Positions 9,949-39,196 of a DNA stretch of 64,000 nt are shown in pieces (position 1 is the first letter of the stretch; every line of letters starts with the position of its first letter). The position numbers were made by a program, and so were the translations under genes. A model generated the notes under the pieces. It was not told where the DNA came from. It made no database searches and saw only the letters and a list, made by a program, of their open reading frames with translations. The DNA comes from Escherichia coli (GTDB lineage: Bacteria; Pseudomonadota; Gammaproteobacteria; Enterobacterales; Enterobacteriaceae), in assembly GCF_030013205.1 (NCBI RefSeq), contig NZ_CP122648.1; one strand, given 5' to 3'.

Positions 9949-10024
<76 letters not shown>

Positions 10025-10181
10025 TTAATCTTCGTCTTTCGAACCGCTACTGCCTTGGCTGCCTTCACTCACCTTAGTCACTTACTTTTGTAAGCTCCCA
10101 AGGATTCGTTCAGTTGCCGCCTTGTCGCAATTCGAAATACTGCGATTGGGTGGTCTGTGCTTTGCAGCACTTTTCAAATTT

Positions 10182-10257
<76 letters not shown>

Positions 10258-24339: not shown

Positions 24340-24873
24340 ATGCGCCTGCGCCCTCTCGTTGCCGCAGCGACAGCTGCATTTCTGGTCGTTGCCTGCAGTT
24401 CTCCTACGCCGCCCCGTGGCGTGACCGTAGTGAATAATTTCGATGCTAAACGCTATCTCGGTACCTGGTATGAGATTGCCCGTTTTGATCACCGCTTTGA
24501 ACGTGGACTGGAAAAAGTCACCGCAACATACAGCCTGAGGGATGATGGCGGCCTGAATGTCATTAATAAAGGCTATAACCCTGACAGAGAAATGTGGCAG
24601 CAGAGTGAAGGGAAAGCGTACTTTACCGGCGCACCAACTCGCGCTGCGCTGAAAGTGTCATTCTTTGGTCCTTTCTATGGCGGTTATAACGTTATTGCAC
24701 TCGATCGGGAATACCGCCATGCGCTGGTTTGCGGCCCGGACCGCGACTACCTGTGGATACTCTCCCGCACGCCAACCATTTCTGACGAAGTGAAACAGGA
24801 GATGCTGGCAGTCGCGACCCGGGAAGGGTTTGATGTCAGTAAGTTTATTTGGGTACAACAGCCCGGTAGTTAG
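24340..24873 (+). CDS. blc: outer membrane lipocalin Blc
   Basis: 177-aa ORF with lipoprotein signal (LVVACSSP) and lipocalin GTWYEIAR motif. Confidence 0.93.
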
Positions 24874-25187
24874 TGAGTGCTGAGTTTCAGACCAATAATC
24901 CCCAATACGATTAACGCCAGACTCGCCAGGCGCATCGGGTTAGCGGACTCGCCGAGCAGCACAATGCCGGTGATGGCCGCGCCGACTGCGCCAATACCCG
25001 TCCACACGGCATAAGCCGTCCCTACTGGTAACGATTTCATCGCCCAGGCAAGTAGCGCCATACTGACAATCATCGCCGTCACGGTAATAACACTTGGCGT
25101 CAAACGACTAAAGCCGTGGGTATATTTCAGGCCAACGGCCCATACCACTTCCAGCAGACCAGCAATAACTAAGATAATCCAGGACAT
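24870..25187 (-). CDS. gdx: guanidinium exporter Gdx (SugE), SMR family
   Basis: 105 aa from internal Met [26 protein letters not shown]; four-TM SMR fold; SD GGAG upstream. Confidence 0.92.
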
Positions 25188-25199
25188 ATCAGGCTCCGG

Positions 25200-25255
25200 A
25201 GAATTGGGGCCGTCCCCGGTGAAAAGAGGCGTTTGCAGGTCGTCCTGCAAAGCTG
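25200..25255 (-). ncRNA. guanidine-II riboswitch (mini-ykkC) in gdx 5' leader
   Basis: On the gdx strand: UGCAGG-ACGA-CCUGCA and GGGG-ACGG-CCCC hairpins (both ACGR tetraloops) separated by a short linker, the second hairpin about 10 nt upstream of the SD. Confidence 0.78.
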
Positions 25256-25361
25256 ATGGTTGAACGGATATTTTGCCAGGTGGCAGGGGAATTTCAACTA
25301 TTACCTTTGTGACTATCGCAAAAAAACAAACGGCACGACATAACTGTCGTACCGTTATTGC

Positions 25362-39120: not shown

Positions 39121-39196
39121 GCCCGGATAGCTCAGTCGGTAGAGCAGGGGATTGAAAATCCCCGTGTCCTTGGTTCGATTCCGAGTCCGGGCACCA
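39121..39196 (+). tRNA. pheU: tRNA-Phe (GAA)
   Basis: GCCCGGATAGCTCAGTCGGTAGAGCAGGGGATTGAAAATCCCCGTGTCCTTGGTTCGATTCCGAGTCCGGGCACCA, 76 nt with GAA anticodon and CCA end. Confidence 0.97.

Follow-up and report, generated by a model that had tools for sequence, protein, structure and literature searches.

Introduction

Guanidine-II (mini-ykkC) riboswitches are described as translational ON switches, in which a kissing interaction parts an anti-Shine-Dalgarno sequence in the linker from the Shine-Dalgarno sequence (SD) (PMC5558903, PMC12186494). This linker anti-SD model is put forward in PMC5558903, PMC9300104 and PMC9094411. The E. coli member of the class precedes gdx, the current functional name of sugE (PMC13064478, PMC12186494). 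Its first hairpin, P1, has been crystallised with guanidinium (PDB 5NDI), and NMR detected two new G-C pairs upon ligand addition (PMC9300104). A kissing state in cis, dependent on ligand and Mg, was observed by smFRET (PMC9094411), and chemical-shift assignments for P1 were published in 2025 (PMC12117010). The intramolecular nature of the kiss is nevertheless disputed in vitro (PMC9300104): NMR/SAXS analysis of the 49-nt E. coli aptamer revealed intermolecular P1-P1' dimers and no intramolecular P1-P2 kiss, and the ACGG loop of the second hairpin, P2, binds poorly in vitro (PMC9300104). The RNA concentrations of that study were far above cellular ones, and smFRET did detect the interaction in cis (PMC9094411).

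Genetic work lends indirect support to guanidine-dependent activation at this locus. In the Cs+-resistant strain ZX-1, expression of gdx is constitutive as the result of a 20-bp deletion, a phenotype measured as mRNA level (RNA-seq, n=1), and added guanidinium induces or enhances Gdx-dependent Cs+ resistance (PMC13064478).

Genomic context of gdx

The window, that is, the whole 64,000-nt stretch of DNA analysed here, is a piece of E. coli chromosome with the local gene order frdABCD, ampC and blc on the plus strand, followed by gdx/sugE, ecnB, ecnA and efp on the minus strand (Table 1). Of 5,426 complete E. coli genomes, 5,425 contain a 701-nt piece around the riboswitch, several pig-associated ones with 100% identity. 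The gdx product matches the NCBIfam SugE equivalog NF008512 over residues 1-104 of its 105 (193.5 bits, cutoff 126) as well as Pfam PF00893 (E = 1.9e-33), and the other SMR models (EmrE, Qac) all score below their cutoffs for this protein. The full-length equivalog match, together with the four-TM SMR architecture, places it in the Gdx/SugE subfamily. The preliminary description had located the element in the gdx leader, and the equivalog match and the RefSeq name sugE both agree with this.

Several features of the neighbourhood stand apart from the riboswitch. The convergent genes blc, on the plus strand with its end at 24873, and gdx, on the minus strand with its end at 24870, overlap by 4 nt at their 3' ends. 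The RefSeq/PGAP records carry no annotated feature under the riboswitch (window 25190..25262), though it is represented in Rfam and in the literature. On the minus strand at 9949..10257, the window has two tandem tRNA-Gly(GCC) genes (9949..10024 and 10182..10257) where strain CFSAN018748 has three; the two strains differ by a single repeat unit of ~111 nt, and recombination between tandem copies presumably accounts for its loss or gain.

From just downstream of tRNA-Phe (pheU, 39121..39196), the segment 39330..64000 is not colinear with otherwise near-identical strains. This pheU genomic island reaches at least 80% coverage in only 20 of the 5,426 E. coli genomes, and all of those listed are pig ETEC. 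According to the annotation of NZ_CP122643, it encodes a tyrosine integrase, IS4/IS66 remnants, a pair of nucleotide-binding-domain and SLATT proteins, a Qat anti-phage system (QatD, QatC, a hypothetical protein and a KAP NTPase), Hha, YfjI, a YeeP-like GTPase and an Ag43/Cah autotransporter. An Rfam IS102 RNA match (RF00124, 61392..61628, plus strand, 68.2 bits against a gathering score of 46) sits in the island between the GTPase and Ag43 genes, with a strong terminator hairpin at its end.

Table 1. Positions of the elements of the gdx transcription unit in the window, in the order in which they follow one another on the gdx strand
Feature	Coordinates	Strand	Basis and remarks
ecnB intrinsic terminator, 12-bp stem and T run	25329..25356	-	Terminator scan; closely follows the ecnB stop (25362); delimits the gdx unit upstream
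Putative gdx promoter, -35 TTGAAA	25292..25297	-	Consensus scan; TTGAAA/TTGATA in Citrobacter, Enterobacter and relatives
Putative extended -10, TG-g-CAAAAT	25270..25277	-	Consensus scan, 9/12 matches with TG; YAAAAT/TAGAAT hexamer across Enterobacteriaceae leaders
P1 2-bp extension, 5' strand GC	25252..25253	-	Pairs with 25230..25229 across bulged C25231; in MFE structure
P1 hairpin UUUGCAGG-ACGA-CCUGCAAA	25232..25251	-	Rfam alignment; loop ACGA at 25243..25240
Linker CGCCUCUUUUCACC, 14 nt	25218..25231	-	Sequence; holds the published putative anti-SD CUCU and a pyrimidine-rich 3' end
ZX-1 deleted segment CCGGGGACGGCCCCAAUUCU	25200..25219	-	String match to PMC13064478; all of P2 and a few flanking bases
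P2 hairpin GGGG-ACGG-CCCC	25206..25217	-	Rfam alignment; loop ACGG at 25213..25210
Spacer AAUUCUCC, 8 nt, P2 to SD	25198..25205	-	Sequence; length differs among species
Shine-Dalgarno GGAG	25194..25197	-	Sequence; 6 nt before ATG; marked SD in PMC13064478 Fig. 1
gdx (sugE) CDS, 105 aa, SMR-family guanidinium exporter	24870..25187	-	ORF inside a longer TTG-started frame; RefSeq sugE, WP_000118482.1

Identity of the leader element

The Rfam model RF01068 (Guanidine-II/mini-ykkC) matches the gdx leader from 25251 to 25205 over its full length (model positions 1-48), with 50.4 bits against a gathering score of 32 and E = 5.2e-7 in a search of the whole 64-kb window on both strands. The guanidine-I, -III and -IV models all stay below their gathering scores in the window. 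A covariance-model scan was the check proposed in the preliminary description, which had read a guanidine-II riboswitch with two hairpins, looped by ACGA and ACGG, on the gdx strand between 25188 and 25260. Both hairpins are present, the UGCAGG/CCUGCA stem given there being the inner part of P1, and the interval spans the aptamer and the expression platform down to the base before the start codon. Its estimate of about 10 nt between the end of P2 and the SD was roughly correct; the actual gap is 8 nt. P2 ends this short distance before the SD of a SugE equivalog gene, which is where the class is located, in the 5' UTR of a guanidine-related gene.

The architecture of the leader is that of the class. 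The conserved octamers GGACGACC and GGACGGCC both occur in it and form the two GG-ACGR-CC units, together 16 conserved nucleotides, whose positions are invariant in alignments of 21 and 40 leaders. The 14-nt linker falls within the class range of 7-40 nt (PMC5558903). P1 is prolonged by the pairs G25253-C25229 and C25252-G25230, with C25231 bulged, so that the linker bases G25230 and C25229 double as partners of the P1 extension. P1 appears in both the MFE and the centroid structure of the 131-nt leader, which folds with z = -2.3, and the P2 hairpin in isolation is predicted at -7.1 kcal/mol. The gdx start codon ATG lies at 25187..25185, and GGAG or GGGG is kept at the SD position in gdx orthologues.

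Could the two hairpins be chance structures, or belong to another element such as the ecnB terminator or an antisense RNA, with no role in regulating gdx? A lone GGACGRCC octamer is indeed at chance level, with four in the window against 2.85 expected; since the single octamer is not unusual here, the signal lies in the tandem arrangement. The window holds a single instance of the pattern GGACGRCC-N10-40-GGACGRCC, which none of 100 dinucleotide-preserving shuffles reproduced, and the Rfam E value of 5e-7 likewise stands against coincidence, as do the ligand binding and genetics published for the same sequence (PMC9300104, PMC13064478, PMC9094411). An origin in the ecnB terminator is countered by the strong terminator that ecnB has of its own, ~80 nt upstream. 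With the conservation of both position and pairing described below, such readings are left with practically no probability.

The element is very probably the E. coli guanidine-II (mini-ykkC) riboswitch, acting as a translational ON switch for the guanidinium/H+ antiporter Gdx (SugE). Nothing speaks against this identity, and the reservations that follow concern the mechanism alone.

Transcription unit

Between the ecnB terminator and P1, a promoter-like site (25297..25270) has its two hexamers separated by a 16-nt spacer. Citrobacter, Enterobacter and relatives have retained both hexamers, in surrounding sequence so diverged as to be unalignable. This suggests that gdx has its own promoter, with a start near the predicted position 25263, ~12 nt upstream of P1; the transcript would therefore include the P1 extension.

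Conservation and covariation across gdx loci

A scan for the Gdx protein, with one genome taken per species, yielded 80 loci. Two GGACGRCC loops lie within 160 nt upstream of the gene in 52 of 79 diverse gdx loci. At 20 gdx-like loci that lack the two-loop motif, an Rfam scan found no riboswitch within 1.5 kb, other guanidine classes included. Among Enterobacterales, RF01068 matches all 20 of the gdx orthologues scanned (38-49 bits), and the match stops 13-29 nt short of the start codon.

In an alignment of 21 Enterobacterales leaders, P1 is paired in 96% of cells and shows changes on both sides in six of its eight pairs. Its extension, which is set off by a conserved bulged C and lies outside the RF01068 model, is paired in 95% of cells and occurs as GC/AU/GU and CG/UA. 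Over the whole structure, the paired fraction of cells is 97%, compared with 82% for column shuffles and 33-54% for slid-partner controls, and 53 cells carry double changes. P2 is invariant as GGGG/CCCC in this alignment and hence uninformative on covariation there. Across 40 diverse gdx leaders, its inner four pairs are kept with CG, GU and AU variants, and two further P2 pairs occur only outside the enterics. The compensatory changes that bear on class membership are the double changes of P1 and the pairs of P2 below GG/CC, which vary among GC, CG, GU and AU. The mini-ykkC assignment of the preliminary description is in this way upheld by covariation in addition to the RF01068 score, the two GG-ACGR-CC hairpins and a linker of fitting length.

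Covariation of both stems, and a position relative to gdx that all 20 of the 20 orthologues share, including those with unrelated upstream DNA, complete the case against chance hairpins. On the combined grounds of terminator position, orthologue position, covariation and shuffles, the chance-hairpin and ecnB-terminator readings were ruled out.

The loops themselves vary within narrow limits. P1 carries ACGA in 20 of the 21 leaders, and P2 carries ACGG in 11 and ACGA in 10; none of the 21 has ACGG in both loops, in agreement with the reported rarity of G/G loop variants (PMC9300104).

One leader of the set lies on a plasmid. On the multidrug-resistance plasmid p8538-NDM-1 of Providencia vermicola, a Citrobacter-type gdx comes with an intact guanidine-II aptamer, which scores 47.2 bits and equals the C. 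werkmanii one in both score and position. The leader is also matched by three E. coli plasmids. Plasmid-borne sugE is known in the literature (PMC12186494), and this locus agrees with it.

Variation within E. coli

The gdx leader is present in 5,422 of the 5,426 complete E. coli genomes. Identity over its 73-nt core reaches at least 99% in 3,152 genomes and lies at 95-99% in another 2,259, and ~6-20 of the 5,426 have a partial match or none. In this core, some 40% of genomes depart from the window sequence at 1-3 bases. The SNPs seen in the leader are C25228G in the linker, C25201T in the spacer and the synonymous C25182T in codon 2; none of them touches a conserved aptamer nucleotide. The polymorphism at 25228 (minus strand) falls within the published putative anti-SD: the linker reads CGCCUCU in the window and CGCGUCU in strains C31 and NDM4. 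The window strain has C at this position, and many E. coli strains have G.

Two deletions alter the leader more deeply. The published ZX-1 deletion string AGAATTGGGGCCGTCCCCGG, from E. coli Mach1, has a single exact match in the window, at 25200..25219. A natural 29-nt deletion (25230..25202) was found in strain 167 (NZ_CM132950), a clinical urinary isolate. It removes the linker, P2 and most of the spacer, so that P1 abuts the SD. By analogy, this deletion probably makes gdx constitutive, as a natural counterpart of the laboratory ZX-1 allele.

The OFF state

Folding of the free leader predicts P1 with a probability of 0.96 and P2 with one of only 0.13. In the same ensemble, GGGAC (25216..25212) forms a helix with the G of AUG and UCCU (25185..25181), GGC (25211..25209) pairs with GCC (25194..25192), and CC (25207..25206) pairs with GG of the SD (25197..25196); the SD G residues are 99-100% paired. 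We keep the published linker model as the default for the OFF state. In E. coli and its close relatives, however, the same riboswitch might sequester the SD and start region with an opened P2 and not with the linker, a reading that we regard as tentative and on balance doubtful. The loop G bases and CCCC of P2 (25211..25206) would pair with the SD and the CC that follows it (25197..25192), GGGAC would hold the G of AUG and UCCU as in the predicted helix, and a ligand-driven kiss with P1 would trap P2 as a hairpin and free the ribosome-binding site (RBS).

Several observations are in line with such a role for P2. The helix is part of both the MFE and the centroid structure of the leader. In 12 core Enterobacteriaceae leaders, the probability of free P2 does not exceed 0.31, and in 11 of them the SD pairs mainly with the loop and 3' strand of P2 (summed probability 0.53-0.80), the exception being Citrobacter FP75 (0.08). 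P2 is frozen as GGGG/CCCC in the 21 Enterobacterales leaders while P1 is free to vary in the same species, which suggests a sequence constraint beyond hairpin formation, and deletion of P2 is constitutive (PMC13064478). On the side of the linker, the C/G polymorphism at 25228, inside the putative anti-SD, is common within E. coli, and the linker-SD pairing has a probability of just 0.03 when P1 and P2 are enforced. The codon-2 variant of strain C31 (UCC to UCU) retains a G-U pair in the alternative helix.

Other results weigh against it. For E. coli alone, the low P2 probability is not beyond chance, as 29% of downstream shuffles fall as low as the native 0.13. A trend emerges from the shuffle test, run on 11 of the 12 core leaders with the plasmid-borne one left out, only within the core Enterobacteriaceae, and there is none in Hafnia, Serratia, Yersinia or Photorhabdus, where P2 is predicted to be stable and the SD to be paired elsewhere; the pattern is absent in Providencia too. 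Constraints of other kinds act on each of GGGG/CCCC, the SD and the Ser-Trp codons 2-3 (MSW), and because both sides of the alternative helix are fixed in this way, it offers no covariation test. A 4-bp stem may need to be all G-C merely for stability, and nearest-neighbour energies are unreliable for such short helices.

The predicted cost of opening the RBS falls in the expected order, from 6.9 kcal/mol in the free leader to 5.95 with P1 and P2 enforced and 5.24 in the deletion mutant. The ON/OFF difference of 1-1.7 kcal/mol (~1 with P1 and P2 enforced, 1.65 for the ZX-1 deletion) is nevertheless small, which counts against sequestration by P2 and is too little to discriminate between the models. 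Taken together, the modelling weakly favours pairing of the SD with P2 over linker:SD pairing. An alternative OFF state is not claimed here, because the shuffle test is not significant for E. coli alone.

The level at which the switch acts has also to be considered. Its main effect could be on mRNA abundance, exerted by Rho-dependent or premature termination or by a protection from RNase that is coupled to ribosome loading. In RNA-seq, the ZX-1 deletion showed up as a strong up-regulation of gdx mRNA (PMC13064478), and this read-out, at the mRNA level with n=1, leaves room for an mRNA-level component at gdx. Guanidine-III is reported to control RNase E access besides translation (PMC12186494), and a consensus scan flags P1 and the U-rich linker as terminator-like. 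The U run, however, begins 6 nt past the stem and has only four U, making it a poor intrinsic terminator; ZX-1 keeps P1 and the U tract, yet is constitutive (PMC13064478). The class is described as translational (PMC5558903, PMC12186494), and mRNA changes would be a common secondary effect of translational control. A switch working mainly on mRNA abundance is accordingly unlikely, and translational control is the reading retained below.

Discussion

The evidence fits a simple sequence of events, the later part of which stays conditional. A promoter of its own, directly after the ecnB terminator, would drive transcription of gdx. As sequence, Rfam alignment and covariation show, the 5' UTR folds into a stable P1 and a marginal 4-bp P2, each with an ACGR tetraloop, and guanidinium in the loops would promote a loop-loop kiss through their C and G bases, as published for this RNA. 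Without ligand, the SD and start region would be held in an inhibitory pairing, with the linker as the partner in the published models. Folding offers as a variant an opened P2, in which the loop G and CCCC would pair with the SD, and GGGGAC with the G of AUG and codon 2. With ligand, the P1-P2 complex would keep P2, the linker or both off the SD, so that the 30S subunit could bind and Gdx be made to export guanidinium.

As a discovery, the locus carries little weight. The riboswitch is already known: it has an Rfam entry, is near-universal in E. coli, and has been crystallised and probed. The preliminary description had called it an expected core feature and no novelty, a judgement that holds given the leader's presence in nearly every complete E. 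coli genome and the appearance of the same sequence in structural, biophysical and genetic papers. In-line probing, NMR/SAXS and smFRET data exist for this exact RNA.

The practical relevance lies in the exporter that the riboswitch gates, which affects tolerance to quaternary ammonium compounds, ionic liquids and caesium. Riboswitch mutations in ionic-liquid-tolerant E. coli were reportedly described by Higgins et al. in 2019. Deletion of P2 leads to constitutive expression of gdx, and alleles of this kind are known from the laboratory and, rarely, from clinical isolates. If P2 were the sequestor, it would be both half of the aptamer and the repressing element, and the P2 deletions of ZX-1 and clinical strain 167 would be gain-of-expression alleles.

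Compared with known systems, the element in the window is the same as the described E. coli sugE/gdx representative of guanidine-II and differs from it in nothing of substance, base-by-base identity with the K-12 construct having been checked over the 20-nt deletion string. Guanidine-I (ykkC), -III and -IV recognise the same ligand and control the same kinds of genes (gdx/sugE, guanidine carboxylase), but their folds are unrelated to guanidine-II: I and IV act on transcription termination, and III is a pseudoknot (PMC12186494). The guanidine-II riboswitches of P. aeruginosa and Gloeobacter violaceus (5VJ9, 5NOM, 5NDH) have in common with E. coli the two ACGR hairpins and two conserved G-C pairs per loop; they also share ligand-induced loop-loop dimerisation, translational ON control and SugE-like downstream genes (PMC9300104, PMC5558903). 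For P. aeruginosa, the proposed partner of the SD is the linker together with the 5' end of P1 (PMC5558903). Unlike these two systems, the E. coli riboswitch has a P2 of only 4 bp, an ACGG loop with weak binding in vitro, and a linker:SD complementarity limited to CUCU:GGAG.
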